NCBI GenBank assembly: GCA_965248265.1
Contig: CBDFJF010000001.1
Span: forward strand, 896,001-960,000
Source of the DNA: Candidatus Latescibacterota bacterium
GTDB lineage: Bacteria; Latescibacterota; UBA2968; UBA8231
DNA: 64,000 nucleotides
Direction: 5' to 3'
The translations under genes and the position numbers were made by a program. Positions within the stretch are counted from its first letter, which is position 1, and each line of letters begins with the position of its first letter. Below the pieces are notes generated by a model. It had not been told where the DNA came from, searched no databases, and saw nothing but the letters and a program-made list of their open reading frames with translations. Shown here in pieces: positions 16,298-56,649 of the stretch.

Positions 16298-17812
16298 GTG
16301 ACCGGATCACATCTTCACATCTCTCTGCAGCAACTGACCAACTGCATCAGCCGGATCACTGACCCACCGGATGGACAGGCGGGTTCGTTGCACGAACTGG
16401 CCGGAAAGGTTGTTCGCGATCTGAACGAAACGTTGCGCGATCCGGAAAGTGGAGAGTCGACGGCTGCGCTTGTCCGCTTCTTCATGACCATCGAACACGA
16501 GAGTCTTGACGACTCCGTGTCGAGTTCCATCGCCGATCGTTTCCCGGGTCTTGCACCCCAACCAGAGACTAAATGTCTGACTCTCATGGGCACCGCCGGA
16601 GACGAGCTTGACTGGTGCGACATTGAAAGATCCCAAGGGCATCGCTCGGTTCCACTGATAAGCGAGAAGTGGGTGAATCAGATCCCCATGATCGCTCGTC
16701 TCGTGTTGGAACTAGGGTTGGAGATCCACCAGGTCATAACACCTGCTGCAGACCAAGCGATGGAACAAGAGAAACAGGACTTTCGCGTCTTTCACGTCGA
16801 GGAAGCACTCGACAGTGAGTACATACCGGACCAGGAGTTCGTCGTGTCTCACGGGATCCGTTCGGTTCTGGGTTTCGGGGGCATGCTGCCCACTGGTCAC
16901 CTGTTTGTTGTGATCGTGTTCTCGAAGGCAAAAATTTCGCTGGAGACAGCGCTTTTGTTCCGTACTGTCGCCCTGGGCGTACGGATGATGATGCTTCCCC
17001 TCCTGAAGAAGAAGATCCTCGCCGGGGAGAAGGGGGTCTACGAAGAGGTTGAAAGTCTGCAGGCAGTTACCAGGGCCCAGGCGCAGTTGCTGGCAGTGTT
17101 CCGCACCACCGTGATCGAGCAATCCGACAAGCTGGATCAGACCCTGGCTGAACTGCAGACGACGAACGCCGACCTGCGCACCACTCTCGACGAGCTGAAG
17201 GATGCCCAGTCGCGACTCGTCGATTTCGAGGCAAAGCTCGTGTCGAAGTATGCCGTTGAGAAGCTCAGGGATCCCTCCACCTACAAGGTTGCCTTTATAG
17301 TGGGGACCTTGATCAATCTCTTCGGCCATATCCTGGTTCCTTTCTTGCGTGACCGGCCGAATGTGGGGGAAGCGTTTATCAGCGAGTTGGATGCGCGTCC
17401 CGCACTTGCCGCGATTTCGATCGCCATCGCCTACCTGTTTCCCATCATCGTCCAGGTTCATTCGGCGGTAACGGGCCGTCTCCGTGGTCACGGAACCGAG
17501 ATGCGCGCTGCGTTCGCGGACAGTACGCCGGACCCGGTGTTTCGAGCGGCCGTAGACGGCCGTATCATAGATGCCGGCGCCGGCACTCGTGCCTTGCTGA
17601 CCCGATACGACTTGGACACTGCCCAGGACGTTCTCGGCGTCCAGTTATGGGGAAAGATTCTCGAAGCGCAGCGCGGTGGCAGTCAGCTCCAACGCGAGAC
17701 GTACGTCCGCGTCGAAGCACTCAACGATTCGTTCTTTGTGGCATACTCCAGAGCGGCTAACGGTGCGGTGAACATCTATCTTACGGCGGCTGAACCCCGA
17801 GGAACTTCATAA
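16298..17812 (+). CDS. Multidomain sensor: uncharacterised GAF-like domain, coiled coil, NrtS-like membrane segment, PAS-like fragment
   Basis: N-terminal ~235 aa align by eye with 53326..54078; YKVAFIVGTLINLFGH...IAYLFPIIVQVHSAV resembles 29561..29869; AFADSTPDPVFRAAVDG resembles the FPEQNPNPV PAS start. Confidence 0.72.
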   Translation: MTGSHLHISLQQLTNCISRITDPPDGQAGSLHELAGKVVRDLNETLRDPESGESTAALVRFFMTIEHESLDDSVSSSIADRFPGLAPQPETKCLTLMGTAGDELDWCDIERSQGHRSVPLISEKWVNQIPMIARLVLELGLEIHQVITPAADQAMEQEKQDFRVFHVEEALDSEYIPDQEFVVSHGIRSVLGFGGMLPTGHLFVVIVFSKAKISLETALLFRTVALGVRMMMLPLLKKKILAGEKGVYEEVESLQAVTRAQAQLLAVFRTTVIEQSDKLDQTLAELQTTNADLRTTLDELKDAQSRLVDFEAKLVSKYAVEKLRDPSTYKVAFIVGTLINLFGHILVPFLRDRPNVGEAFISELDARPALAAISIAIAYLFPIIVQVHSAVTGRLRGHGTEMRAAFADSTPDPVFRAAVDGRIIDAGAGTRALLTRYDLDTAQDVLGVQLWGKILEAQRGGSQLQRETYVRVEALNDSFFVAYSRAANGAVNIYLTAAEPRGTS

Positions 17813-40356: not shown

Positions 40357-40372
40357 GATCTTGCCAGTCCTT

Positions 40373-41911: not shown

Positions 41912-42483
41912 GGGCCGTCTCCCGTGACTACGAGCCGCGCCCGTGGGAGTAAGCGCCGAGAGATCTCCAGTCCAACGTCCTCCAGCTCGTTTCGATTGAT
42001 CTCGAAACGGAGCAGCTCTGCGTCGAGGAAAAAGTTGATCATCACCCCGCGCTCGCCGAAGCCCGGAGTGTCCCCGATTGTCAACACAGGTCGCCCCTCA
42101 GTCGTCGCCAAAATTAGAGGCAGCTCATTATCCTCCGAAGCTGAGATGAAAAGAACCTGACAGTTGCCGATCTCCACCGCACTGCCTATGTACCGAACCC
42201 TGACCGGCCGGCCTTGGATAGGCGTGATCTGAGCCAGTTCGTCCAGTCTGCTGCCGAACGAGTGTGCTCCAATCACCTCGATCATGAAGGGGGATGATTC
42301 GTCGCCCTCCCCCTCGGGCCAGGTGATGAAGCGCGTAAGCCGCTCGATAAAAGTGACCTCGAGAGTCAACCGATCGGTCTGGGCGTAGATCGGATTCAGC
42401 ATTACCAGCAGTACTAAGCCGGCGGTAACTCGCGCAGCTCCAAGGACGTTCGTCCGAACTCCACTTTTCATCCGTGGCACCAT
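41908..42483 (-). CDS. yfiR: YfiR (DUF4154) family periplasmic regulator
   Basis: RFITWP, CQVLFIS, PVLTIGD, GVMINF, RFEIN, GLEISRRLL; lies between a TonB receptor and a HAMP kinase. Confidence 0.85.
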   Translation of the reverse strand: MVPRMKSGVRTNVLGAARVTAGLVLLVMLNPIYAQTDRLTLEVTFIERLTRFITWPEGEGDESSPFMIEVIGAHSFGSRLDELAQITPIQGRPVRVRYIGSAVEIGNCQVLFISASEDNELPLILATTEGRPVLTIGDTPGFGERGVMINFFLDAELLRFEINRNELEDVGLEISRRLLPRARLVVTGDGP

Positions 42484-43760
42484 TACGCGGGCAGCCGGAC
42501 CCTTCCCTTAGAGTCCAACAGATATCATTCCATACACAGCTCGCCCGGAATGATGCGGAATTGTATTTACAACCTTCCGGTTGAACTCAGGGAAATCAAT
42601 ATCTTCATCCAACAGATTATCGGCATATAGAGATAGTGTCGTTTCAGGCATGGTTGGCTTACCTAATAACTTGGGAATATCAAAACTGATATTGGCCGTT
42701 AGAAGATCATAGGAATCCGCCGCGGGATTTACTTCCTGCGTACCGAGATTGAATTTCTCGACTTTGCTTGCCTCTCCAAAGTGGCTATTAAATAGACTCA
42801 CAGTGTATCCTTTATCCGCTTCGTATGAAGCTCCCACTTTTGCCATCAAGTTGGGACTGAACGTGACATCCTTTTGCCCTTTGTCATCCTCGTTAATCTG
42901 ATAACTGATGGAACCTAACAGGCGGAGCTCTTTGGCAAACTGCGCATTACCTTCGAATTCAAGACCCTGAAAATCCACTTCTCCCGCATTGACATACGTA
43001 TTAACTCCGTCGACAAAAGTCCTAGCATGACTATCTGAGAGCTTACTGCTGTAGTAGGTAAATGCCGCGAAATGTCGTGAAGTATGGTAGAAAATCTGGG
43101 CGTCAAAAGTTGCAATTCTTTCAGGTTGTAACTTGCTGTTCCCTTTCAGAAAAGGGGCGTCGATAAATGATTCAGCGCCAAACGCTGCACGGTATGCCTC
43201 ACCGTAAAGAACTTTGGCGCCCCACGCCTTATGGAAGTTGGTAACGGCCCCTATACGTGGCGAGATATCGGAAGCTACGCCTTCGGGCTTATTCCATTGA
43301 AAACCACCGACCAGTTTTAACCAGTCCAAAGGCGTGTAATTCCCTTGCAAGTAAATACTCTCACGCCACATGTCATAATTACTGACCCGACCCACACCCA
43401 ATTTCCCATGAAGCTGGTCAAAAACTCCACCAGCGACAATATCTACATTATCCGATATTTGACCATGAGTCGTTAGCTCAATCAAATATCCACTTGAGTC
43501 AAACTCCCTTGTGATTCCGCCAATGGGGAAATCGAAACTGTGGCCGTTGTAGGTAGAATTGATAGCGACATCCCAATTTCCGGTAACAGGATGGGTATAA
43601 CCAACATCAATGAACTGCCGCTTGAGACCCAAAATTCCGCCTGGAAATAAAAATGCGCTTCCTATATTTCGATTAGACGTGTTCGAGAGGATACTATTTA
43701 CTGTGAGACCTTTATAGGATGCTTGAAATACGGCCTGTGTACCGGACTCCTCATTTTTAA

Positions 43761-45203
43761 GGCTCGTCAGTAGAATTCGTGGGTAAATTGTGGCTCGGGT
43801 AGATGGCCAAGCTGATGGAATGAAGCGATTTGGAGTGCATTGAAGGTGCGGAATCCGAATGCTTTTCTCACCGTCAGATTCCATTTCAGGTTCAAGCCCT
43901 CGACGATGCCGTTGTTGAACTGCTTCTTGGCCCTGAACCAATTGAGGATGAGCTCTCGATGACGACGGAGCATCCTGGCGATGTCTTTCATCGGTTCGAT
44001 CTTGCTCCTCATCGTGCGGAAACACCAGCGGTCGAGGAATTTGCCGGCCCAGGCGGGGTAGGTATAGTTCCAGAAGCGCTGGAAGTCTTCCTTCAGTAGA
44101 TAGGCTTTGACGGTACGCAGGTTCATCTTCAAGAGCTCGGACAGCTTCAAGCCTTGGGTGTCGCTGAGGTTCTCCTTGCGCTTGAGGAAGCACCAGCGGC
44201 TCTTGCACAGGACGGGATCTTGGCCCTCTTCTTTGAGTCTGCGGGCCTCTTCGGCACGGACTTTGTCGAGGGCCTTGCTGAAGTGCTGCATGATGTGAAA
44301 GCGGTCGAGAACGTGTACCGCCGCCGGGAGCCGCTGGTCGATGACGGTGAGGTAGGCTTTCCAGATATCACTGCAGATGACGGCAATCTGGCCGAGGAAG
44401 CTTCTCGGCTCCTGCTCGCCGGCCGCATCTTGCTTGCGCTGGTGCTCTTGCTCCAGCTCAGTAAAGCCGTCGTCCAGGGTCTTCATCGTCCGCCCTTCGC
44501 CCATCCATAACAGGCGGCGGCGGTGGGTGTCGATCTGGTACAGCAAGGTCAGATAATGATGGCCTTTCCGATACTGGATTTCATCCACGCCGAGGGCGGT
44601 GACCTGGTCGAGACCGCGATGAGCGATGCCATATTCCACCACGTACTGGACGGACTGGTAGATCTTGTCCCAACTGGTGCGGAAGGAGCGGGCTACCTCC
44701 GTCCACGACAGCTTCTTGGCCCATTGCGCTAGGAAGCACCGGTAGATGTCGGTCAGGTGGTGCTTACCCGTGCTCCAGGGGACCTTCTCGACGACCACCC
44801 GGCCGCAGGCGTTGCAGGCCACCCGACGCATGGGATACACCAGAAAGACCGGGAACCCCCAGAGCGGAACGAACTCGAACCGCCGTGCATCGGTGGCCGT
44901 GTCATAGGTGGGTGACAACTGACCGCAGCCGCTGCACTCCGCCCTGGAGTTCTTTCGGGGCCGGAGGCTCACCATAATCCTTCCGTGTTCGTCAAAATGA
45001 CTGCCCTCAAACACAAAACGCTTGAACTTCGTGCATCGGTTCAGTACTGTGATCAGGCGCATCATTCCCTCCAAGGTAGGTCGGGATCGGTCTTGGTCGA
45101 TTGTCCCAACATACCGGGAATGATGCGCCTGTGCTATCCTCGGTCTCCTCTATGCCCGTGGGCGCAGCCGGGCTCTTTCACCCACAGATTCTCCGGAGGA
45201 GCC
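43761..45203 (-). mobile_element. ISL3-family insertion sequence
   Basis: Imperfect IRs GGCTCGTCAGTAGAATTCGTGGGT / GGCTCCTCCGGAGAATCTGTGGGT; 8-bp target duplication ATTTTTAA at 43753..43760 and 45204..45211. Confidence 0.93.
43767..45065 (-). CDS. ISL3 transposase
   Basis: Zn finger CSGC/CNAC, LGVDE, CSDIWKAY, LDRFHI, NGIVEGLN, RKAFGFR. Confidence 0.93.
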   Translation of the reverse strand: MMRLITVLNRCTKFKRFVFEGSHFDEHGRIMVSLRPRKNSRAECSGCGQLSPTYDTATDARRFEFVPLWGFPVFLVYPMRRVACNACGRVVVEKVPWSTGKHHLTDIYRCFLAQWAKKLSWTEVARSFRTSWDKIYQSVQYVVEYGIAHRGLDQVTALGVDEIQYRKGHHYLTLLYQIDTHRRRLLWMGEGRTMKTLDDGFTELEQEHQRKQDAAGEQEPRSFLGQIAVICSDIWKAYLTVIDQRLPAAVHVLDRFHIMQHFSKALDKVRAEEARRLKEEGQDPVLCKSRWCFLKRKENLSDTQGLKLSELLKMNLRTVKAYLLKEDFQRFWNYTYPAWAGKFLDRWCFRTMRSKIEPMKDIARMLRRHRELILNWFRAKKQFNNGIVEGLNLKWNLTVRKAFGFRTFNALQIASFHQLGHLPEPQFTHEFY

Positions 45204-45961
45204 ATTTTTAATAATGTCATGTACCCCAGCTTCATCCGTTGCCTCAAAATCCCAGCCCTGGCTGTCCAGATAGTCTATGCCCCCATAAAAGCTGAAATCT
45301 CCATGGTGCTTGCCACCAGATACGGTTATCTCTTTCGTATCAAATGAACCGTACCGGGTTGAGATTACCACATCTATATCCTTATTTGCCTTTTTGGTAA
45401 TAACATTGATGACACCTGCAAACGCATTCGTGCCGTAAAGGACAGAGCCAGGACCTCGAATTATCTCTAATCTCTCGATCGTTTCTAGAGGAAATGACCT
45501 GTAGATGTCGCCGTTAATTCCTCCGCCATGCGCTTCTCGGATAGGTCTGCCATTGAGCAATAGGAGTATGTGATTATCGGCGTGGGTTTGTGCACCGGCT
45601 CTGATAGCCGTTACATTGTGAGGAAAGACATTGGACCCTATTACTTGGGTATTGGTTACTCTATCGAGTACGTCTCTAAGATTTCGAGCCCCAAACCGTT
45701 TTATTTCATCTTGTGTGACAGTACTGACAATCCCCGGAGCATGAGAAATTCTCTCAGCTTTCTTCGATGCCGTGGTCACTTTCAGATTAAATAGGTCGTC
45801 CAGGGAAAGTTGGACCAGCTCTCCCAGCGAAGACTCCTCATCCTCGTTTCTGTCCTCATAAGCCGAGAGATGGTTGTTACATAAAAGCAGTATAAAACAG
45901 CAAATGGATAGAATTTGGGATGCCGCAAACTTCTGGTTTGTTTCCCTGGTACGTCTGGCCA

Positions 45962-46948
45962 TCACAGGCTCCTTTCACTCAGTTCCAGCAACTCGTCGAC
46001 CTGGATCTGCCCGCTCTCCAGGTCCTCTGCCACCCCCGCGCTCCACAACACGAGAGCCGCCTCCTGGCCCAAACGCCGCAGGGCGTTGCCAGCCTGCTCT
46101 CTGTCCGCTTCTGGCAGGCCATCCACCCAAAGGACGCCCATCGCTTCGTCTTGGTACAGAAGGGAGACCGCGGCCTGGCTTCCAGTATCTTGCTTTGGCT
46201 GTCCATCCCGGAATACTTGCTCGACCAGGGAAGTTTCTTCACCCAAAGAGACAGCCGGCAACCCATCGCCTTGCTGACCGTCTTCCAGGGCGGCTACTGC
46301 CTCCAGCTGGTCACCCGTTTCATTGGGCCGGTACATAATGACGCGCTTTATTCCCAGGACTTGCTCTACTACCTGCAGAATTTCTTGTTGGGCCTGCCGG
46401 ACGCTGTGTCCAGACATCTGGAAATGGACCAGCCGATCGCGGCCCTCGAGTTCTTTCACCTGACGTTCTAACTGGTGGTAGGCATGCCGTAGGTCTCGGG
46501 TTTGAACCTCCACCTTCAGTTCCAGCTCTTGCTGATATGAGCGGTTCTCGGCCACGAGCCGCTGTCGGGCCATTGCCTGCTCGATCTCCGCCTCTACCAG
46601 AGCCAAGTCGAAGGGCTTAATGAGGTAATTGTATGCCCCCAAGCGCATAGCTTTGATGATCGTGTCCGTATCCTCAGTAGCAGTGGCCATAACCACTCCG
46701 AGATCGGGATATTTCCCTCTAATCCATCGTAGGACCTCCAAGCCATCCATCTCGGGCATGAGAATGTCCAATGTTACCAGGTCATAGGCCTCCTGCTGCA
46801 GCAGAAGTTGCATGTCGGTGAATCGAGTGGCCGTGCGGACGTAGTAGCCCCGCTTGGCCAAACCGCGCTGCAGAATAGCGCCCACGGCGTCTTCATCATC
46901 CACCACCAGAATCCTCCCTTTATCTGAACACCCGAGTTCCGTCCCCAT
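45962..46948 (-). CDS. Response regulator with C-terminal GAF-like region
   Basis: ILVVDDE, LDILMPEMDG, YLIKPF; KELEGRDRLV shared with 32172..33152. Confidence 0.88.
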   Translation of the reverse strand: MGTELGCSDKGRILVVDDEDAVGAILQRGLAKRGYYVRTATRFTDMQLLLQQEAYDLVTLDILMPEMDGLEVLRWIRGKYPDLGVVMATATEDTDTIIKAMRLGAYNYLIKPFDLALVEAEIEQAMARQRLVAENRSYQQELELKVEVQTRDLRHAYHQLERQVKELEGRDRLVHFQMSGHSVRQAQQEILQVVEQVLGIKRVIMYRPNETGDQLEAVAALEDGQQGDGLPAVSLGEETSLVEQVFRDGQPKQDTGSQAAVSLLYQDEAMGVLWVDGLPEADREQAGNALRRLGQEAALVLWSAGVAEDLESGQIQVDELLELSERSL

Positions 46949-46969
46949 ATGAATTCTCTCCTCGTTATC

Positions 46970-49303
46970 TCATTGCGAGTTGTTTGAAGACGCCTCAGCC
47001 GTTTGCTTCTCGATCGGCAGCTCGATTACAAATCGTGCGCCGGTGGGCTGGGACTCCAGTCTGAGATGGCCGCCATGATCCTGCATAATGCCATTACACA
47101 CACTCAATCCCAATCCGGAACCCGAGCCGATTTCTTTGGTTGTGAAAAACGGTTCGAACACCCGTTCTCGAATTTGCTCAGGCACTCCTGGCCCGCTGTC
47201 TTCCACGGCCAGTACGACCTTGTCAGCGCAAACGCACGTCCGCACGGTGATGCGTTTCTCTTTCTCTACACTCTCCCGCAGTGCATCTTGGCTGTTCTGC
47301 ACCAGGTTCAAAACCACCTGCTGAATCTGACCCGCGTGGACGTGTAAACGCGGCAGATCCTCATCGAAGCTTTCGGTCAACTCAATATGATTCAGCTGTA
47401 ACAGCCGTCGCATCAGGGCAAGCGCTTCGCGCACGACCTCATTGAGATCCATGGCCTGCTTTTCCAACTTTTGACGCCGCGCGAAAGTCAATAGACGCCT
47501 GGTGATCTCGGCCGCCCGAGATCCTGCCTGATAGATTTGGTCAATATCCTGCTGCATCCCTTCTTCCAGTGAATCGTCCAGCAGGAGCTGGCAAAGTCCT
47601 GTGATTGTGGTAAGCGGGTTGTTGATCTCGTGAGCAATACCCGCAGCCAACTGGTCGATCATCTCTACCTTTTGAGCCTGGCGCAGCTGCTGTTCCTTAA
47701 GCGCCAGAGCGTTCAGATCGTCCAGGCGCCGAAAGCCAACGGATAGGACGTCTGTCAGCTCCTGCATGAATGCGAGGTCCCGGTCCGTGAACGCTTCGGG
47801 CTCAGGGCTGTTGGCCGACAGTGTCCCATGAGAGAAAGGAACATCGAGCACCGACCGCACTTCAGGGTACCAAGCCTCTGCGACATCCCCATACTCGTGG
47901 TACGGATCCTCTTTGGCGAGATCGCGACGATACGCTGGCACGTCGGTTCGCCAAATCTGCACGACGACGTTCCTTGCCGTACTGTCATCTCTCATCCGCC
48001 AATTCCCTTCCCTGGTCATCTCGTGGGAGCTAACCGTGGGTGGATCGCTGGATTCGTCGATCACATTGATCGCGTAGTGTTGGGGCAGCACCGGCAGTGC
48101 ATCTAAGCCCTCCCTGACAGCCATCAGCACCTGCACGATCTCCTTGGCGTGGGTCATTTTCCACACTTCCTCTCGTACCCGGTGCAGCATTCGCTCCTCG
48201 GCTTGTCGCCGCCTGCGTTCGGTAATGTCACGGACCATGGCGATCATGCAGGCCCTTCCGTCTCTGTCCATGGTCGAAGCTGAAATCTCGGCGGGTAACT
48301 CCCTGCCCGACTTCGTTCGGCAAGTGCATTCGTCCGTCCATCCTGTCCCCCGTTCAAACACGGACTGTGCGAAAGCTCGAAATTTGGACATCTCATGCGG
48401 GTGAATGGCGGATATCGGGATGGACAGCAAGTCCTCTTGAGCATATTCCAGCAGGTCGCACGCACGGGAATTGGCATCGAGGATTCGATCCAGTTCCGGA
48501 TCGATGACAAAGATCGCATCATTGGAGTGGTCGAAGATTTTGCGGAAACGTTCCTCACTCTCCTGCAGCACCGCTTCTGCCCGCTTGCGCTCCGTGATAT
48601 CGCGAAGCGATGCGAGATAAGCCGCTTCACCATTCCATTCGGTCTCCACCACACGCATTTCGGCCACCGCTGTTTCACCGTCTCTGCGTAGGACATCGAG
48701 TTCTGTTGTTGCCTCCCCCACTGGAAAGCCGAATACTTCGTCCAGGAGTTGCTCTTTACTGCGAGACAAAAGAGCCTCCGCTGCTGGATTTACGAAACGC
48801 ACGATGCCGTTCCGGTCCATGATGATCACGCCATCCGAATTTCTCTCTATGATGTGGCGAAGCCGGGCTTCGCTGAATTGCACCTCATTCATGTGTTGGA
48901 CCAATTCCAACCGCAACCGCTGTCGTTCAATCGCGTAGCGAATGGCCCGTACCAACACACCGTTGTCTGCTTGACCCTTAATCAGATAATCCTGTGCGCC
49001 TCTCTGCATAGCTCTGCTGGCGAGCGCTTCGTCGTCTAGGCCTGTGAGTACTACAATGGGTATTTCTGGTATTTGACTGTGTAATCGGCTAAACGTCTCA
49101 AGGCCCTTGCTGTCCGGCAGCGAGAGATCCAATAGTGCCACATCAAAGTGCCTTTGGCCGAGACGTTTCAGCGCTTCACTGAGCCGTTCTACGTGCGTCA
49201 ATTGAAACGTAGACGGCGTTGACTCCGTCAGTGTCTCACGCATCAAGTCAGCATCGTCGGGATTGTCTTCAACCAGCAGGACTTCGACGGGAATCTTGTC
49301 CAT
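46970..49303 (-). CDS. Hybrid histidine kinase (receiver-PAS-PAS-GAF-like-HK)
   Basis: VLLVEDN, LLDLSLPD, two PAS domains, AHEINNP, QVVLNLVQNS, GSGLGL. Confidence 0.9.
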   Translation of the reverse strand: MDKIPVEVLLVEDNPDDADLMRETLTESTPSTFQLTHVERLSEALKRLGQRHFDVALLDLSLPDSKGLETFSRLHSQIPEIPIVVLTGLDDEALASRAMQRGAQDYLIKGQADNGVLVRAIRYAIERQRLRLELVQHMNEVQFSEARLRHIIERNSDGVIIMDRNGIVRFVNPAAEALLSRSKEQLLDEVFGFPVGEATTELDVLRRDGETAVAEMRVVETEWNGEAAYLASLRDITERKRAEAVLQESEERFRKIFDHSNDAIFVIDPELDRILDANSRACDLLEYAQEDLLSIPISAIHPHEMSKFRAFAQSVFERGTGWTDECTCRTKSGRELPAEISASTMDRDGRACMIAMVRDITERRRRQAEERMLHRVREEVWKMTHAKEIVQVLMAVREGLDALPVLPQHYAINVIDESSDPPTVSSHEMTREGNWRMRDDSTARNVVVQIWRTDVPAYRRDLAKEDPYHEYGDVAEAWYPEVRSVLDVPFSHGTLSANSPEPEAFTDRDLAFMQELTDVLSVGFRRLDDLNALALKEQQLRQAQKVEMIDQLAAGIAHEINNPLTTITGLCQLLLDDSLEEGMQQDIDQIYQAGSRAAEITRRLLTFARRQKLEKQAMDLNEVVREALALMRRLLQLNHIELTESFDEDLPRLHVHAGQIQQVVLNLVQNSQDALRESVEKEKRITVRTCVCADKVVLAVEDSGPGVPEQIRERVFEPFFTTKEIGSGSGLGLSVCNGIMQDHGGHLRLESQPTGARFVIELPIEKQTAEASSNNSQ

Positions 49304-49358
49304 TGGCACCTCGCCTTCGGAACAGTCCGATATTGCAAGACCGCAGTTTCTGACTTCC

Positions 49359-50891
49359 TTACTCACCTACGCCTTGTGCCTCTTGGAAAAGGCCCCTGAA
49401 ACGCTCAGTTTCACCGGGGGCGGCATAGCTCGGACTACCCGACAGGATCCCGGTGACATTGGAGAAGGCTCGCCCGATATGCATGCCGTCCCCATCGATG
49501 CTGAATTCGCGGATTTCCTTATCGTGTAGGGATCCTCGCATCTTGAGGACGGTAAGGCCCCGGCGCATTTCCCCGTACATCTCCACGTAGCGCAGCAGGA
49601 TGATCGAGTCAGTGATCGTGGAAATGTGGGCTTCCGTGACCGACGTACCGCCCATCAACGACTCCGTTGTGGACGTGAAGAGACCGGCCGCTTCCTTATG
49701 CTTGATAAAGGCCGTGAGTGCTATAACGAATTCACGGAATCCTTTTCTCGTGGAAACACGCTCCAGGGCGGACAGACTGTCCACGGCGATCCGGTTGGGT
49801 TGGAATTCATCGATGATCTCCTTTATGCGAATGAGATGATCTTCAAGGCCGGCGGCCTCCGGGTACTCGCACACCACCTTCAGTCTCTCTTCCCGTTCCA
49901 TTTGCTCGAAATCCACTCCCCAACCGGTAGCGTTGCGAAAGAGTTGCTCGCGGCTCTCCTCGAAGGCAAAGAGCAGGCAGCGCTCGTCAGTAAGCGCACC
50001 TCCGTCCATAAACTCAGTCACCATGAGAGTCTTACCGGTCCCGGTCGCCCCTGACACCAGGATGACGGAATCGCGGAAGAAGCCGCCACCGCACATCTCG
50101 TCTAGCTCTGCACTGCCCGAGGTGATGCGGATAGCCGAGGACTTCTGTTTCAGTTCAATGGCGGACAGCGGGATCGCGATGATGCCTTTGTCTGGCATGA
50201 CCGTAAAAGGGAATTCGCCCTTCTGATGCTGGGTCCCGCGAAATTTGAGGATCTCCAAGGTTCTGCGGCGTTTCTCATCCTCCAGCACGTTGCGCAGGAT
50301 GACGACGTTGTCGGCGACAAACTCCTCGATGCCGTAGCGGGCGATATCGCCGTATTCCTGGGTTCGCTCCGCCGTCATGACGGCCGTGACCCGCATCTCC
50401 CGCAATGCTGCGGCCACCCGAAACAGTTCACTGCGCACGGTGCTGGTATCGGAGAATTTGGTAAAGATGGCGCCCAGCGAATCCAGAGACACCCGTTGCG
50501 CACCTACCTTCTGAATGGCGTATTCGACACGCGTCAGGAGGGCACCCAGATCGTATTTTCCCGCTTCGGTGACGTCATCTTCTGGCCGCGGAGATGCATC
50601 GACGAAGATCCATTTGCCTTCGCTTTCCCATTTCTGGATATCCCAACCAAAGCCCAACATGTTCTTGCGGATATCGCGGGGCGACTCCTCGAAGGTGATA
50701 AAGACCCCCGGCTGATCTGTCGCCCTAATCCCCTCGGCCAGGAACTGCACCGCAAAGACCGTCTTGGCGCTGCCAGCGGTGCCGGCGACCAGTGTAGTGC
50801 GTTCCCTCGGCAGGCCACCTTCAGAGATCAGGTCAAAACCCTGGATTCCCGTTTCGAGTTTTTCAATCAAACGCTGCTCTTTCATGTCCAT
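49359..50891 (-). CDS. kaiC: Circadian clock ATPase/kinase KaiC
   Basis: Two RecA-like domains (GTAGSAKT, GATGTGKT), FEES twice, phosphosite region HISTITD, C-terminal GILSGSP. Confidence 0.96.
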   Translation of the reverse strand: MDMKEQRLIEKLETGIQGFDLISEGGLPRERTTLVAGTAGSAKTVFAVQFLAEGIRATDQPGVFITFEESPRDIRKNMLGFGWDIQKWESEGKWIFVDASPRPEDDVTEAGKYDLGALLTRVEYAIQKVGAQRVSLDSLGAIFTKFSDTSTVRSELFRVAAALREMRVTAVMTAERTQEYGDIARYGIEEFVADNVVILRNVLEDEKRRRTLEILKFRGTQHQKGEFPFTVMPDKGIIAIPLSAIELKQKSSAIRITSGSAELDEMCGGGFFRDSVILVSGATGTGKTLMVTEFMDGGALTDERCLLFAFEESREQLFRNATGWGVDFEQMEREERLKVVCEYPEAAGLEDHLIRIKEIIDEFQPNRIAVDSLSALERVSTRKGFREFVIALTAFIKHKEAAGLFTSTTESLMGGTSVTEAHISTITDSIILLRYVEMYGEMRRGLTVLKMRGSLHDKEIREFSIDGDGMHIGRAFSNVTGILSGSPSYAAPGETERFRGLFQEAQGVGE

Positions 50892-50892
50892 C

Positions 50893-51198
50893 TCATTCAT
50901 CTCCTTGATTAGCGTCGGGATACACATCCAGCCCCAACAGGACCTTCTCGGTATCGGACAGATCGCCGATGACGCGTCGAATGGGCGAAGGCAGCTCTTT
51001 GATCAGGGCCGGCGTCGCCAGGATCTTCTCATCCTCAGCCAATTGCGGTCTTTCCAGGATATCGATGACCCTTATCTCGTAGCGGCCTCCCAGCTCCTCC
51101 CTGCAGATCCGCTGCAGGTTGGCAATGGCGCGCTCCGATTTCGGCGTCTGTCCGGTGATGTATAGTTTCAGTAGCACTTCATCCATGATCATCCTCAC
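50893..51198 (-). CDS. kaiB: Circadian clock protein KaiB
   Basis: LKLYITGQTPKSERAIANL, IDILERPQLAEDEKILATP, PIRRVIGDLS. Confidence 0.96.
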   Translation of the reverse strand: MRMIMDEVLLKLYITGQTPKSERAIANLQRICREELGGRYEIRVIDILERPQLAEDEKILATPALIKELPSPIRRVIGDLSDTEKVLLGLDVYPDANQGDE

Positions 51199-52049
51199 TC
51201 TGTATCGGTGGTCATTCCGACAGAACGGTTGCGGTAGAACGAGACCAGATGGCCCATTAGCTCAAAAGCCATCAACCGCCCCTCTTCGATATAGGCCTGG
51301 GCTTTTTGCGGCCCTGTTTCGCTGCTTTTTTTCTGCAGGGCAGTGCTATGCACCTCCACTACGCTGCGCGGACCGGCTTTCAAGAGACCTATCTGTTCGG
51401 CCAGGCAGTAAAGACCTTCCGAAGTATTGTGCTCTACTCTGTAGGCTTGTTGCTCCAGCGCCCGATCCAGGAGCGCTTCGTAGCGCTCAACCAGTTTCGT
51501 GAACGTATCCGGTATACTCTCCTGGAGGGACGTGGTGCCATAAAGCCGAGCCGTAACAGCCGCCCCGTTAGAACCGGAAGCCCGCTCAAATGAGCGCATC
51601 TCGCGCTCGTGACGTTCCCGCTGCCGAGTCATCTCCAGTTCCGCTTGCAGCCGGTGGCGCTCAATCGCATAGCGGATCGCCCGCACCAAAACGCTATTAG
51701 CAATCTGCCCCTTCACCAGATAATCCTGTGCCCCTTCATGAACAGCTCTGATGGCCAATCTTTCATCGTCGAGACCTGTAAGCACCACAACGGGCACGTC
51801 GCGCGCTTCAGCGTGTATCCTGGCAAGCGTGGCCAATCCCTGGCTGTCGGGCAGAGAGAGGTCCAGTAACACCACATCAAATCCATTTTCCCGCAGGCAT
51901 CGCACCGCCTCATCCAGTCGCTCAACCTGCGTCAGCTGGAACGGAACAGAGGCAGTGGCTGCCTCTGTCAACACCTCGCGCAGCAGGTCTGCGTCACTGG
52001 GGTTGTCCTCCACCAGCAGGACATGGATGGGTCGGGATTCCCTTTTCAT
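51195..52049 (-). CDS. Receiver-domain protein with KaiA-like C-terminus (KaiA3 type)
   Basis: Receiver VLLVEDN/LLDLSLPD/DYLVKG; C-terminal VVEVHSTAL...EEGRLMAFELMGHLVSFYR resembles the KaiA C-terminal helix; overlaps the kaiB start. Confidence 0.8.
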   Translation of the reverse strand: MKRESRPIHVLLVEDNPSDADLLREVLTEAATASVPFQLTQVERLDEAVRCLRENGFDVVLLDLSLPDSQGLATLARIHAEARDVPVVVLTGLDDERLAIRAVHEGAQDYLVKGQIANSVLVRAIRYAIERHRLQAELEMTRQRERHEREMRSFERASGSNGAAVTARLYGTTSLQESIPDTFTKLVERYEALLDRALEQQAYRVEHNTSEGLYCLAEQIGLLKAGPRSVVEVHSTALQKKSSETGPQKAQAYIEEGRLMAFELMGHLVSFYRNRSVGMTTDTE

Positions 52050-52496
52050 TCAGTTTGTGGGCAACTTAACGACGGTGAACCAGAAGTCCTCGATGGATTT
52101 GACCACCTTGATGAACTGGTCAAAGTCCACCGGCTTCGTGATGTAGCAGTTGGCGTGCAGCCTATACACTTGGAGAACATCCTCTTCCGCCTCCGAGGTG
52201 GTCAGGATGACCGTGGGAATCAGCTGTAGGGATTCGTCCGCCTTTATTTCTGCCAGTACCTCTCGGCCGTCCTTCTTGGGCAGGTTCAAATCGAGTAGGA
52301 TCAGATCTGGACGTGGTACATCGCCGTTCGGACCCTCGCGCCGCAGAAAAGTCAGCGCTTCCACACCATCCTCTGCAACGTGAAGATGGTTGTGTATCTT
52401 GGCATCCTTGAGCGCTTCTATGGTCAACTCTACGTCGTTCGAGTTATCTTCGACCATCAGGATCTCGATGGGTCTGCATACCTCTGCAAAGCTCAT
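52050..52496 (-). CDS. Single-domain response regulator, Rcp1-like
   Basis: ILMVEDN, PDLILLDLNLPKKDG, ANCYITKPVD, FW motif. Confidence 0.92.
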   Translation of the reverse strand: MSFAEVCRPIEILMVEDNSNDVELTIEALKDAKIHNHLHVAEDGVEALTFLRREGPNGDVPRPDLILLDLNLPKKDGREVLAEIKADESLQLIPTVILTTSEAEEDVLQVYRLHANCYITKPVDFDQFIKVVKSIEDFWFTVVKLPTN

Positions 52497-53320
52497 GATG
52501 CGGTAACTCCTTTGTCCGGGATGGTGAAGTAGAACGTCGACCCAACCTGCGGTACTGATTCGACCCAAATCCGGCCGCCGTGTCGTTCTATAATTTTTCT
52601 GCATGTCGCCAGGCCAACACCGGTGCCTTCGTATTCCTTTTGAGTGTGCAGTCGCTGAAAAATGAGAAAGATGCGCTCGCTATGTTCCCGATCTATCCCG
52701 ATGCCGTTGTCTTGGACGAAGAATACCCACTCAGTATCCTCGCGACTCGCCCCTACATGTATTTTTGGCTGGTGATTACCGCAGAATTTGATGGCATTCC
52801 CGATCAGGTTCTGGAATAACTGCACTAGCTGTACATCATCGGCCAGAACAGTTGGCAGTACGCCATGTGTTACCAAGGCGCCGCTCTCTTCAATGGCGAC
52901 TTGCAGGTTGTCAATCCCCTGGCTTAGGGCCTCAGAACATTTAGTCGGCTCAAAGGCGTTACCCCGCGTGCCGACCCGCGAATACGTTAGCAATTCGGCA
53001 ATGAGCCTTTTCATCCTCGCTGCCCCATCTACTGTACGGGCGATAAATCTGCGGGCATCCGCATCGAGTCGGTCTTTGTAACGTCGATCGAGCAGCTGCA
53101 AATAACTCGTTATTACACGCAGCGGCTCTTGCAGGTCGTGTGAAGCGACAGAGGCAAACTGTTCCAGCTCGTCGTTGGAGCGCTCCAACTCTGCCAGGAG
53201 CTGTTCCAGCTCTATAGATTGGTCGATCACTGTTTGCTCGTGCACTTCGAGCAGTTGTTCGAGGGTAGCCACCTGGGACCCAAGCTGCTCAACTGTTTCA
53301 TTTCGGCTGTTGTCGTCCAC
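52493..53320 (-). CDS. Cytoplasmic histidine kinase (Cph1-type kinase module) lacking its own sensor domain
   Basis: ASHDLQEPLR, QLFQNLIGNAIKF, FQRLH, GTGVGLA; only a ~50-aa helical N-terminus. Confidence 0.92.
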   Translation of the reverse strand: MDDNSRNETVEQLGSQVATLEQLLEVHEQTVIDQSIELEQLLAELERSNDELEQFASVASHDLQEPLRVITSYLQLLDRRYKDRLDADARRFIARTVDGAARMKRLIAELLTYSRVGTRGNAFEPTKCSEALSQGIDNLQVAIEESGALVTHGVLPTVLADDVQLVQLFQNLIGNAIKFCGNHQPKIHVGASREDTEWVFFVQDNGIGIDREHSERIFLIFQRLHTQKEYEGTGVGLATCRKIIERHGGRIWVESVPQVGSTFYFTIPDKGVTAS

Positions 53321-53325
53321 AACGA

Positions 53326-54078
53326 TTACTTCACCTCAACAGAAGAGTCGCATCGGGTGAATACCGATCCTCCAACGAAGGGCAACACTGCCACCTTCGC
53401 ACTCAGTGCCAGGATCCTGAACATATCAGCAGTCTTGCGCGGGATGTGGACCTTGGAGAACAGGATTACCGCGAAGAGATCCCCTGAAGGAAGCATGCCA
53501 CCGAACCCCAGCGCCGATTGAATGCCGAATGGAATCACGAATTCCGCTTGGGCTGGGATGTACGGACTGCCCATTGCTTCGGGCACGTAGAACACGTTGT
53601 AGGATCTCTGATCCAGATCCACGATTATCGTTCGATCCGGCTGCAGTACTGCGTTCACGTCCAGTCCGAATTGATGAACTAATTGAGAGATCATCGGAAA
53701 TTGTGCGACAATGTCCTCGCTCGGGAGAGGAATCGCCTTATGACCGATCGAGTTCGCTCTGGAATTCCACTCGGACCTCTCACCGGCAGTCCCCAGCAGT
53801 ATCAGACACCTCATCGCAGGCGATTGGGCTCGGTTACCCACTAACTGGCAGGCGAATTCGCTAAGATCTCTGTCCAGATCCTGGAAAGGGTGCGTTTTGT
53901 AGAAACGGACGAGGACACAGGATCTGGCGCCGGTCTCCTGGTCGACGATGTGCTCTTGGAGATAGCGAACAATCCTTCCAGCCACCGTCTCCATGCTTTC
54001 AGCGCCGGCACCCATGCTGCGCAATGCCGAGGAGCATTTGCTCATGTCGCTCAGGGTAAAGTTTGTGAGATCGTACAT
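53326..54078 (-). CDS. Uncharacterised stand-alone GAF-like sensor protein
   Basis: Homologous to the N-terminus of 16298..17812 (LVRF, CLxLxGTAG, GHxxxPL, YIPxQ, LGFGGMLP); 5 bp upstream of the kinase. Confidence 0.75.
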   Translation of the reverse strand: MYDLTNFTLSDMSKCSSALRSMGAGAESMETVAGRIVRYLQEHIVDQETGARSCVLVRFYKTHPFQDLDRDLSEFACQLVGNRAQSPAMRCLILLGTAGERSEWNSRANSIGHKAIPLPSEDIVAQFPMISQLVHQFGLDVNAVLQPDRTIIVDLDQRSYNVFYVPEAMGSPYIPAQAEFVIPFGIQSALGFGGMLPSGDLFAVILFSKVHIPRKTADMFRILALSAKVAVLPFVGGSVFTRCDSSVEVK

Positions 54079-54150: not shown

Positions 54151-54417
54151 TTATGGTGCGTTTTGCACCAATTTCTTCAGAAACTGCGACCAGGCAACAC
54201 ATTGTACCCCTTCTATCTCAAGCTGACGTAGGAGCTCAGTACCGTGCGTGTCGGCGAAACCGACATCGGACAGATCCAGAACCAAGGACGACCCGATCTC
54301 TTCTTGGTGTTCTGAGCACGTTCTCCGAAGTAGCCGCACCCACTGACCTACGAGCTCTCCTTCCAATTTGAGGACAGTCTCTCCGTGTCGGTCTACAAGC
54401 TTGGTAATTCTGAGCAT
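54151..54417 (-). CDS. STAS-like protein
   Basis: MLRIT..VLKLEGELVGQWV..LDLSDVGFADTHG; paralog of 29239..29535. Confidence 0.8.
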   Translation of the reverse strand: MLRITKLVDRHGETVLKLEGELVGQWVRLLRRTCSEHQEEIGSSLVLDLSDVGFADTHGTELLRQLEIEGVQCVAWSQFLKKLVQNAP

Positions 54418-54450: not shown

Positions 54451-54466
54451 TGCAATCTCCGTGCCA
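54451..54466 (-). promoter_or_regulatory. Sigma-54 promoter of the kai-containing operon
   Basis: TGGCAC-GGAGA-TTGCA matches TGGCAC-N5-TTGC; 33 bp upstream of ATG 54417. Confidence 0.85.
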
Positions 54467-54633: not shown

Positions 54634-56649
54634 CTAAGAAACGCCGCGCTTCACTGCGAGTTTCTTCATCCTTGCCTCCAGCGTGGTGGGCTTGAGACCT
54701 AGCAGCGCCGCCGCTCCTCCCTTGCCGCTTACTTTTCCATTTGTCGCCTTTAGGGCAGCGAGAATGTGGCGCCTCTCCAGCTCATGCAATGGTAGCAGGC
54801 GGTGTTCATCAGGCGTCAGCCGGTGGTCTTCAAGCTGGATATGCTCTTCCTCAATCCGGCCTCCACCAGATAGGATGACGGACCGTTCAACTAAGTTCTC
54901 CATCTCACGCACATTTCCCGGCCACGCATAACTGTTGAGTCTCTCGATAACCTCTTCACTGAAGTCTGCAGGTGGAAGACCCAATCGGGCACACTTTTGC
55001 CGAGCGATAAAGCTGGCGAGCAGAGGGATGTCCTCTGTACGATCTCGAAGCGGTGGAACGTTGACAGGAAAAACGTTCAACCGAAAGAAGAGGTCTTTCC
55101 TAAATTGACCATCATTGACCATCTGTTCCAGGTTTCGATGTGTCGCGGCGACAATCCGAACATCAGCCTTGATTGTCCGAGTGCCACCCACGAGCTCGAA
55201 CTCCTGTTCCTGGAGCACTCGCAACAGTTTCGCCTGTGTTTCTAGCGGAAGGTCCCCAATTTCGTCGAGAAAAATCGTACCCTCATGTGCGAGTTGAAAC
55301 CGTCCTTGTTTTCTCGCAAATGCGCCTGTAAAGGCCCCCTTTTCGTGGCCGAACAGCTCGCTCTCAATTAACCCAGAAGGGATGGCTGCACAGTTGAGTT
55401 TGATCAAGGGCTTCGAATTCCGTTGACTCATCTGGTGTATTGCGCGGCAGATTAGTTCCTTCCCTGTTCCTGTCTCTCCCACAACCAGTACTGTAGTGTC
55501 CGTGTTTGCTACCAGCTCAACCTTGCGCATCACATCCTGCAGACCTTTGCTCTTTCCGATCACTTTGTCATAGCTGTATGTGCCGCGGACCTCATCTGCA
55601 AGGGCCTGCTCCGTTCGCCTGCGTTCGTTGATTTCTCGCTGAAGACGCTCGTTGGCTATTCTCAGGTCAGTGGTACGCTTCTCAACGCGGTGTTCCAACT
55701 CGGCTGAATCGCGCTGCACCTGTTCGAACAGCCGCGCCTGGCTGACCGCGATTGCGAGCTGATCAGCCACCTGGCGAGCAATCTCGATGTGTTCGGGCGA
55801 GAAACTCTTCGGTGATACAGCCGCTATGTTGAGGGCGCCAATTAGCTGGCCCCGTGGGGCGAGGGGTATGTTGATATAGGATCTCATCCCTTCAGCGAGT
55901 AGCTTCCGATGAACCGATGAGTCGGAGAAACCCGAAATGTCGTCGACTATGTGAACGTCCCCATTCCGCAGTGCCTGAGGGACTTCGTAGTCGTCTAGTG
56001 CGAACCGTGAGCCCGCACTAATACTGGTTTCGCCGTCTACCCGAATCGCGAAAACCTCAGCTTGTTCGGCTAGTAAGTCGAACAGGACAACACTCGCCCG
56101 CGCGTGTGGCAGCAACTGAGAAAGCTGATCGAGCGCCGCCTGGCCGATGTCTTCAGGGGACTGGGCGGCCAGAATAGCACGTTCAATCTCCAGAAGGCTC
56201 TGCAAACGTGCAACAACATTTCGTAGTTGCAGCTCTGCACGGTTGCGCTCTGTAACATCCGAAAGAACGGCAAGACTTCTCTCGTAGACGCCATCCGCAT
56301 CTCGTTGCACTACGGCTGATAACAGGACATCTATGATCTCCCCATTTTTCTTGACGAACTGATAGGGGACATCCTTGGCATAACCAGTCTGCATAAATGC
56401 AGGTAGCGTGACTGTTGTAGCGTGCTGTCGCGATTCCTCCGTGAGGAAATCCAGCGACCTGCGACCGATGACTTCATCCCGGTCGTATCCAAGTACCTCA
56501 AGCCAATGATCGCTGACCCCCACTATACGTCCACTCGCGTCGATCGAGTGCAACATGGCAGGCGCTCTATATAGCGCGTGCAACCGGTCATCGCTCTCTT
56601 GCAGCGCTTCTTCCGGGTCGTCGCGGGTCTCTAAACTGATGTCGTGCAC
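54634..56649 (-). CDS. PAS-GAF sigma-54-dependent activator (FhlA-like AAA+/Fis HTH)
   Basis: GETGTGKE, GHEKGAFTGA, FLDEIG, WPGNVRE, HTH GGAAALLGLKPTTL. Confidence 0.93.
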   Translation of the reverse strand: MHDISLETRDDPEEALQESDDRLHALYRAPAMLHSIDASGRIVGVSDHWLEVLGYDRDEVIGRRSLDFLTEESRQHATTVTLPAFMQTGYAKDVPYQFVKKNGEIIDVLLSAVVQRDADGVYERSLAVLSDVTERNRAELQLRNVVARLQSLLEIERAILAAQSPEDIGQAALDQLSQLLPHARASVVLFDLLAEQAEVFAIRVDGETSISAGSRFALDDYEVPQALRNGDVHIVDDISGFSDSSVHRKLLAEGMRSYINIPLAPRGQLIGALNIAAVSPKSFSPEHIEIARQVADQLAIAVSQARLFEQVQRDSAELEHRVEKRTTDLRIANERLQREINERRRTEQALADEVRGTYSYDKVIGKSKGLQDVMRKVELVANTDTTVLVVGETGTGKELICRAIHQMSQRNSKPLIKLNCAAIPSGLIESELFGHEKGAFTGAFARKQGRFQLAHEGTIFLDEIGDLPLETQAKLLRVLQEQEFELVGGTRTIKADVRIVAATHRNLEQMVNDGQFRKDLFFRLNVFPVNVPPLRDRTEDIPLLASFIARQKCARLGLPPADFSEEVIERLNSYAWPGNVREMENLVERSVILSGGGRIEEEHIQLEDHRLTPDEHRLLPLHELERRHILAALKATNGKVSGKGGAAALLGLKPTTLEARMKKLAVKRGVS

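Follow-up and report, generated by a model that had tools for sequence, protein, structure and literature searches.

A member of a very divergent sensor family of predicted GAF fold, with a partner helix of its own, encoded next to a KaiA3-like/KaiB/KaiC module in a Latescibacterota bacterium

The gene row and its two-component proteins

A stretch of 64,000 nucleotides from Candidatus Latescibacterota bacterium (assembly GCA_965248265.1, contig CBDFJF010000001.1, positions 896,001 to 960,000) was analyzed; the whole stretch is called the window here, and positions are counted from its first letter. On its minus strand, the gene for a stand-alone protein of 250 amino acids, referred to below as the sensor, is followed by genes for a histidine kinase, a single-domain response regulator, a KaiA3-like regulator, KaiB, and KaiC. 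This report concerns the sensor, the family to which it belongs, and its possible role in this gene row. The sensor gene runs from 54078 to 53326 (53326..54078, minus strand), and its ATG is preceded by a GAGGGA-type ribosome-binding site. Between its TAA and the GTG start of the kinase gene (52493..53320, minus strand) there are 5 bases. The kinase has 275 amino acids; according to Pfam, its HisKA domain begins at residue 52 and its HATPase_c domain at 161, whereas residues 1–50 are helical or coiled-coil only. Its predicted phospho-acceptor is H61, within the motif SHDLQEPL. The regulator (148 amino acids; 52050..52496, minus strand) consists of a receiver only, with D69 as the predicted acceptor Asp. 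The ATG at 52496 is its likely start and overlaps the kinase stop.

The next gene (51195..52049, minus strand) encodes the KaiA3-like regulator of 284 amino acids, in which a receiver (D63) is followed by a long helix and a predicted domain of four helices at the C-terminus. It overlaps by 4 bp with kaiB (50893..51198, minus strand; PF07689, E 1.2e-29), and kaiC follows (49359..50927, minus strand; PF06745, E 6e-117, 2 stretches), encoding two KaiC/RecA-type halves. The genes from the sensor to kaiB are tightly packed, with intergenic gaps of -4 to +5 bp. The open reading frames (ORFs) and Pfam matches confirmed the layout proposed in a first-pass annotation of this DNA, in which a stand-alone protein of 250 amino acids lies 5 bp upstream of a kinase with a short N-terminus, followed by an Rcp1-like regulator.

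The subfamily of the kinase and the regulator was investigated by comparison with solved structures. The best named relatives of the regulator were RcpA (1k68, E 1.6e-42) and Rcp1 (1i3c/1jlk, E 5e-40), above which one unnamed receiver ranked. The best named relatives of the kinase were bacteriophytochrome kinase modules (8sgk, 8uph, 8avv; E about 3e-36). Both sets of sequence matches support the earlier label of a Cph1/Rcp1-type pair. The accompanying claim, that the sensor replaces the photosensory module of such a pair, held only insofar as related Kai-linked kinases have PAS inputs in that position; the sequence gave no detectable homology to phytochrome GAF domains. Like the phytochrome Cph1/Rcp1 and bacteriophytochrome pairs, the window proteins combine a kinase core and a single-domain regulator of the same subfamily with an input of GAF fold, which is predicted here. 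Unlike those pairs, they lack both a PAS-GAF-PHY module and an invariant Cys for a chromophore, and the input is on a separate polypeptide.

Fold, family and partner helix of the sensor

Neither the sensor nor a paralog of 504 amino acids encoded elsewhere in the window matched any Pfam or NCBIfam family at E <= 0.1. This result was as the first-pass annotation had expected and supports its description of an unnamed input domain. Comparison of 24 family members with Pfam gave no match better than E 0.016, and none of the 24 matched any GAF model, GAF_2 and GAF_3 included, at E <= 1. Protein Data Bank searches with the sensor sequence and with the family profile matched no GAF chain, and the Atlas feature search returned unnamed clusters only, plus a GAF lead at 0.86.

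The three-dimensional structure of the sensor was modelled by AlphaFold2 on 24 family members (pLDDT 87.3, pTM 0.88). The model was compared with 48,161 solved chains by VIA-align. The first match was 3mmh, a free Met-R-sulfoxide reductase, with Z 12.4, a root-mean-square deviation of 3.0, 159 aligned residues, and 13% identity. Other Z values were 12.4 for 3trc (PtsP GAF), 12.3 for 1vhm, 12.1 for 3p01, and 12.0 for 3c2w (PaBphP GAF). All of the best 50 matches listed were GAF or GAF-like ligand-binding domains, with Z from 12.4 to 9 and 130–170 residues aligned. Foldseek gave 10 matches at E <= 0.001 (2.6e-4 to 1e-3), all of them phytochrome-type GAF domains, with low TM-scores (0.34–0.46 overall, 0.36–0.43 query-normalised). 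The predicted topology was that of a GAF fold, with an antiparallel sheet, the N- and C-terminal helices on one face, and a helix/loop lid on the other. The domain is enlarged to about 240 residues by two extra N-terminal helices and an insert of about 60 residues at approximately 100–160, which contains the most conserved motifs. The earlier guess of a GAF-like fold was thus borne out by the model and by both structural searches. Judged from the predicted structure, the 250-residue protein belongs to an unnamed family whose domain is an enlarged and very divergent form of the GAF fold.

The sensor resembles known GAF domains (PtsP, NifA, phosphodiesterase GAFs, free Met-R-sulfoxide reductase) in its predicted fold and, for its family, in being a cytoplasmic input N-terminal to kinases, cyclases, and GGDEF domains. 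It differs from canonical GAFs in having no sequence-level similarity to them and about 240 rather than about 150 residues. Free Met-R-sulfoxide reductase was the best structural match, but this identity was rejected, as the family has no invariant Cys and the domain is fused to signalling outputs.

The size and distribution of the family were investigated by sequence search. At E <= 1e-3, 2691 proteins of 137–438 amino acids and 393 longer ones were found. At 50% identity the family forms at least 1793 clusters, with 1487 at E <= 1e-10 and 750 at E <= 1e-30. The best 120 matches to the sensor were 57–68% identical to it, across phyla. The family ranges over cyanobacteria (abundantly in filamentous ones), planctomycetes, acidobacteria, Nitrospirota, and methanogens; the few members with a source name came from Planctomycetes, Nitrospirae, Armatimonadetes, and Methanoregula. 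Among the relatives of the host genome the occurrence is patchy, with a match in 4 of 40 others searched. A literature search found no published description of the family, and no match to the sensor domain was found in the available part of a census of archaeal two-component systems (PMC5847659).

In longer members, the domain is followed by HisKA/HisKA_3 with HATPase_c, PP2C/SpoIIE (PF07228), cyclase (PF00211), GGDEF (PF00990), PAS, REC, or Hpt. Among the 150 best representatives, 45 have at most 320 amino acids and 105 are longer, and the domain starts no more than 50 residues from the N-terminus in 147. Placement at the N-terminus before varied outputs is the signature of a signal-input domain. 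The family is an N-terminal input module for kinases, PP2C proteins, cyclases, and GGDEF proteins across bacteria and methanogenic archaea.

In fused proteins, the end of the domain reads L-P-F-x-G-G-x-V-F. A variable spacer of 1–67 residues (median 20) comes next, followed by a conserved helix that was present in 206 of 207 fused proteins. This helix is amphipathic and family-specific, with the consensus ..ELEQLRSQVATLEQLLEVHEQTVLEQSDRLEQALEEL.. (LRSQVAxLEQLLEVHEQTVLEQSxxLEQ). A hidden Markov model (HMM) of the helix was built solely from the 70 residues after the domain in the 207 fused proteins and was then compared with the neighbours of stand-alone sensors. The domain was stand-alone at 58 of 80 genome loci and fused at the other 22. 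A downstream ORF was defined as one on the same strand with its start -60 to +300 bp from the sensor stop, and 51 stand-alone loci qualified. Their downstream ORFs were 28 histidine kinases, 2 GGDEF proteins, 5 PAS-only proteins, 2 1-Cys peroxiredoxins, 1 cupin, and 13 ORFs without a Pfam match. The helix HMM matched the N-terminus of 40 of the 51 (E 2.7e-8 to 4e-24), namely every one of the 28 kinases, 2 GGDEF proteins, and 5 PAS-only proteins, together with 5 short ORFs. It did not match the peroxiredoxin, cupin, or other non-signalling neighbours. Nothing recurrent was found among the 36 upstream ORFs checked, including no cofactor or pathway genes.

In the window kinase, the helix HMM matched residues 5–54 (E 2e-18), encoded at 53159..53308 on the minus strand and reading SQVATLEQLLEVHEQTVIDQS..LEQ. 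This segment would be the element for docking or transmission. By BLASTP, residues 12 onward of the kinase aligned with residues 249 onward of a fused protein (P0156). The same split was found in an ortholog pair of a Planctomycetota metagenome-assembled genome (MAG; L001), with a kinase 46% identical. Since the helix follows the domain in fused proteins and opens the next gene in split ones, the two have been cut apart, or left unjoined, exactly between domain and helix many times. The split sensor-kinase proposed at first is therefore strongly supported as a two-piece system: fused forms exist, and the N-terminus of the kinase is the helix that follows the domain in them.

The joint between sensor and output was examined in the model. 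Helix 5 of the sensor ends at residue 234, and the following P-F-x-G-G-x-V-F is coil. The partner helix is thus no simple continuation of the last GAF helix, because coil and a motif with Pro and Gly-Gly intervene. The model suggests that the domain docks on the partner helix, tethered or free, without one continuous signalling helix. In this the family differs from canonical GAF domains: in place of a continuous helix, a variable spacer and a dedicated helix link the domain to its output, or the two are not linked. Complex prediction with sensor residues 1–245 and kinase residues 1–62 gave a score of 0.02 against a mark of 0.32, was run without controls, and counts neither way.

H-NOX and NosP systems are alike in having a small soluble sensor gene directly before an input-less kinase or diguanylate cyclase, with fused versions elsewhere. 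They differ from the present system in fold, and no haem evidence was found in the sensor family. The putative docking helix is not known to have a described counterpart.

The paralog (16298..17812, plus strand) contains the sensor domain at residues 1–241, the helix at about 249–311 (helix HMM, E 2e-14), hydrophobic segments, and a C-terminal part. An alignment of 236 residues shows 39% identity to the sensor (E 3e-55), and the 7.3-Mb assembly contains no further copy. No output domain with catalytic function could be recognized in the paralog, and its residues 312–504 had no Pfam match. The motifs reported earlier as shared by the two proteins were all found: an N-terminal Cys, C-L-x-L-x-G-T-A-G, S-x-G-H-x-x-x-P-L, PMI, YIPxQ, and LGFGGMLP. 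The shared Cys had been numbered C16, which holds for the paralog; in the 250-residue protein it is C15. The Atlas feature search with the C-terminal part of the paralog pointed to PAS-containing clusters (0.94–0.95). The paralog is preceded, at a distance of 105 bp, by a gene for a GAF-histidine kinase (14729-16192).

Conserved residues and the possible signal

Conservation was counted over 151 diverse family members. R58, L68, G99, W104, M129, and F180 were invariant. S110, F163, S188, G193, and F207 were kept at 99% and Q177 at 98%. Cys was kept at C91 in 143 members (lost in 8), at C15 in 115 (lost in 36), and at C54 in 110 (lost in 41). Position 113 was His in 124, Tyr in 24, and Phe in 3. 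Each Cys and the His are thus dispensable in some members, which weakens the case for any mechanism shared by the whole family that depends on a covalently bound chromophore, on His or Cys as a fixed metal ligand, or on a thiol switch. The first-pass annotation had stressed cofactor binding or redox sensing through conserved Cys and His. This emphasis was not borne out, as the obligatory residues include R58, W104, M129, and F180 and no Cys or His. The result partly refutes the idea by the annotation's own standard, under which Cys and His should be conserved in homologs.

According to the secondary structure, the invariant polar and aromatic residues sit on strands 2–6 and in the segment inserted between strands 3 and 5. 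A small molecule bound non-covalently is favoured as the signal, because these residues are at the lid and floor positions of known GAF pockets.

Bilin or another chromophore could instead provide a light input to the Cph1/Rcp1-type output and the Kai clock. The best Foldseek matches are bilin-binding GAFs of phytochromes and cyanobacteriochromes, the kinase and regulator are of phytochrome type, the operon is a clock operon, and the family is abundant in filamentous cyanobacteria. However, the TM-scores of these matches are low, and VIA-align ranks non-photoreceptor GAFs equal or higher. The short helix before strand 5, the site of the canonical chromophore Cys-His, reads P-A-Q-x-x-F-V here. 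A bilin-binding phytochrome or cyanobacteriochrome GAF is very unlikely as the identity of the domain: there is no conserved chromophore Cys, no PAS or PHY precedes the domain, and neither a PAS-GAF-PHY nor a tandem-GAF architecture is present. Neither haem oxygenase nor bilin reductase was found among the 51 downstream and 36 upstream ORFs. Members of the family also occur in Methanoregula MAGs whose isolate names point to a deep lake water column and to sediment, and in groundwater MAGs. That the family is frequent in Methanoregula, and in MAGs that by their names seem to come from deep water, sediment, or groundwater, speaks against light and, to a lesser degree, against haem. Photoreception has only a very slim chance of being correct.

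A gas or redox sensor with a cofactor was also considered. Haem or a metal would be bound via H113 and/or M129, or oxidants would be detected via C91/C54, and O2, NO, CO, or peroxide would be reported to the kinase, as in the GAF-A of DosS/DosT or in H-NOX. M129 and W104 are invariant, and H113 and C91 are kept in most members at the counts given above. The family profile weakly matches the haem-degrading IsdI (E 0.017, 17 bits, non-significant), with W104 and H113 aligned on a Trp and a His. These residues are spaced like the catalytic Trp and the haem-ligating His of IsdI. The neighbours include 1-Cys peroxiredoxins (2 of 51 downstream ORFs) and a hemerythrin (1 of 36 upstream), and the placement of a sensor beside a kinase resembles H-NOX operons. 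Against this stand the replacements at H113, C91, C54, and C15. The IsdI match is not significant, and the IsdI fold differs from the model. Genes for haem or cofactor synthesis did not recur among the 51 downstream and 36 upstream ORFs. Methanoregula, in which members are common, is not known to have cytochromes. Sensing of gas or redox state by these means is accordingly considered improbable. In two Bryobacterales MAGs (L022, 5755-6450; L080, 5723-6415), a 1-Cys peroxiredoxin gene takes the place of a signalling gene after the stand-alone sensor gene, which is a possible hint of an oxidant signal.

The region upstream of the sensor gene was inspected for control elements. A small ORF with a STAS-like match (54151..54417, minus strand; PF01740, E 4.4e-5, 23.6 bits vs. 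a cutoff of 22.6) adjoins the sensor gene. The ATG at 54417 is its likely start, and it is the first gene past a promoter-like site. This site is an exact sigma-54 -24/-12 consensus, TGGCACGGAGATTGC (54452..54466, minus strand), the sole zero-mismatch site in the window. It lies at 54466..54452, about 35 nt ahead of the STAS-like ORF and just downstream of the gene of a sigma-54 activator (54634..56649, minus strand; PAS-GAF-AAA+ with an HTH_8 domain), which is directly upstream of the gene row. With up to 2 mismatches, the sigma-54 pattern was found 56 times in the window vs. 62 expected, no better than chance, and only the exact site was therefore counted. From its sequence, the row from the sensor to the Kai genes appears to be transcribed from this site, likely a sigma-54 promoter.

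These elements bear on an explanation without a ligand, in which the sensor would be a constitutive adaptor or anti-kinase acting on the kinase helix and set by its own abundance (through sigma-54) or by the STAS-like protein. The very high cross-phylum identity of the best 120 matches (57–68%) is as expected for a surface constrained by contacts, the partner helix is dedicated and conserved, and the STAS-like ORF adjoins the sensor gene. However, the STAS-like ORF was found in none of the 80 family loci. By secondary structure, the polar and aromatic residues that do not vary cluster in the lid of the GAF fold and not on the helical face. Moreover, input domains that bind ligands are typically found, like this one, N-terminal to many different outputs. 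A ligand-free adaptor is therefore held to be very unlikely.

Kai context and meaning of the sensor family

The KaiA3-like protein was further investigated. Its receiver matched REC in Pfam (E 2.1e-20) and has D63, and its model showed a long helix and four helices at 180–281. No match to Pfam KaiA was found at E <= 0.1, and a Protein Data Bank sequence search with the C-terminal half gave no match. The matches listed in a structural search with the model were all receiver-domain matches. The C-terminal domain was found in 2 of 167 other genomes of the phylum sample, in both cases within a Kai cassette. In one genome (G061), the cassette encodes a PAS (two ORFs) and kinase (64% identical), an Rcp-type regulator (64%), a KaiA3-like protein, KaiC, a second KaiA3-like protein, KaiB, and KaiC. 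In the other (G052), it encodes a PAS-kinase (41% identical), a KaiA3-like protein, KaiB, and KaiC. One of the homologs in G061 (L092:10027-10923) shares 40% overall identity with the window protein, contains the C-terminal domain (E 5.5e-10), and passes the KaiA model PF07688 with 23.1 bits vs. a cutoff of 22.2. The G052 homolog had a sub-threshold match to RsbU_N, which shares its fold with KaiA according to PMC11372060. In G061, the PAS of the Kai-linked kinase is spread over two overlapping ORFs (L092 11313-12405, minus strand), maybe due to a frameshift or an assembly error.

In KaiA3 of Synechocystis (299 amino acids), a linker joins a receiver that has an acceptor Asp to four helices at the C-terminus, and the synteny criterion for KaiA3 is a gene directly upstream of kaiB and kaiC (PMC11372060). 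By its model, the window protein appears to have the KaiA3 architecture (284 vs. 299 amino acids), and it lies directly before kaiB-kaiC, as in the KaiA3-KaiB3-KaiC3 system. Immediately upstream here is a sensor-kinase-regulator unit, which the text of that paper does not mention for Synechocystis, and the window protein has no Pfam KaiA match. The KaiA3-like/KaiB/KaiC cluster (49359-52049, minus strand) lies outside cyanobacteria. According to PMC11372060 and a 2026 review (PMC13421787), neither the signal nor the cognate kinase has yet been identified for KaiA3. The window kinase is, from gene order and sequence relationship, a candidate for the KaiA3 input kinase. A phytochrome-type kinase before a KaiA3-like gene recurs with exchangeable inputs, either PAS or the split GAF-fold sensor.

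Taken with the helix and residue data, the 250-residue protein probably provides the input to a cytoplasmic sensor kinase that is made in two pieces and feeds the Kai module. The pocket of the sensor would bind a small molecule non-covalently. Its occupancy would alter the contact of the sensor with the N-terminal helix of the kinase and thereby set autophosphorylation at H61. The phosphoryl group might then be passed to the Rcp1-type regulator (D69), to the KaiA3-like receiver (D63), or to both. The sensed signal would thereby be coupled to the KaiB/KaiC module of the same gene row.

Several results weigh against this reading. The comparison of the family with 8 canonical GAF domains by hhalign gave a probability of 0.09; since this profile-profile comparison found nothing, the GAF assignment is based on predicted structure only. 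The putative ligand pocket (R58, W104, S110, H/Y113, M129, Q177, F163, F180, and F207) is placed by secondary structure and not by three-dimensional distances. The helix was missing from 11 of the 51 downstream ORFs, 2 of which are the 1-Cys peroxiredoxins. Among the 80 sensor-family loci, a KaiC relative was found in none and a KaiB-like match in 1. Because none of these loci has KaiC, the Kai link is a trait of the kinase cassette and not of the sensor family.

Further genes lie on the same strand past kaiC (38083-42483 and 45962-49366). They encode a REC-PAS-histidine kinase, a REC protein, a YfiR-like DUF4154 protein, a CHASE8-HAMP kinase, and a FapA-domain protein of 757 amino acids. The gene of a TonB-dependent receptor (42508-45965, minus strand) appears split into a plug (45150-45965) and a barrel (42508-44208). 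Between the two is the ORF of an ISL3-family transposase (43767-45074), which extends into the barrel ORF.

These results are best summed up as a new and large family of sensors that have a very divergent GAF fold and a helix dedicated to them; here the family would supply the input of a KaiA3-like/KaiB/KaiC module. Of the original interpretation, the unnamed GAF-like input split from a Cph1/Rcp1-type kinase has stood, and the idea of a Cys/His cofactor has been weakened. A broader proposal is that the family is a new, widespread class of cytoplasmic sensors, shaped like GAF domains, docking on a helix in cis or in trans without a continuous signalling helix, and binding a universal ligand or cofactor new to GAFs. 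In this organism the sensor would then entrain a non-cyanobacterial KaiA3-KaiB-KaiC timer, and no cognate kinase of a KaiA3-type protein would have been identified before its partner. This proposal as a whole is speculative and rather unlikely.

With a name and a known ligand for the family, thousands of signalling proteins could be annotated. The split-or-tethered layout with a dedicated helix is a simple two-piece system for the control of a kinase by a GAF domain. The kinase lies directly before the KaiA3-like gene here and in two other genomes, which makes the question of the KaiA3 kinase testable in vitro.

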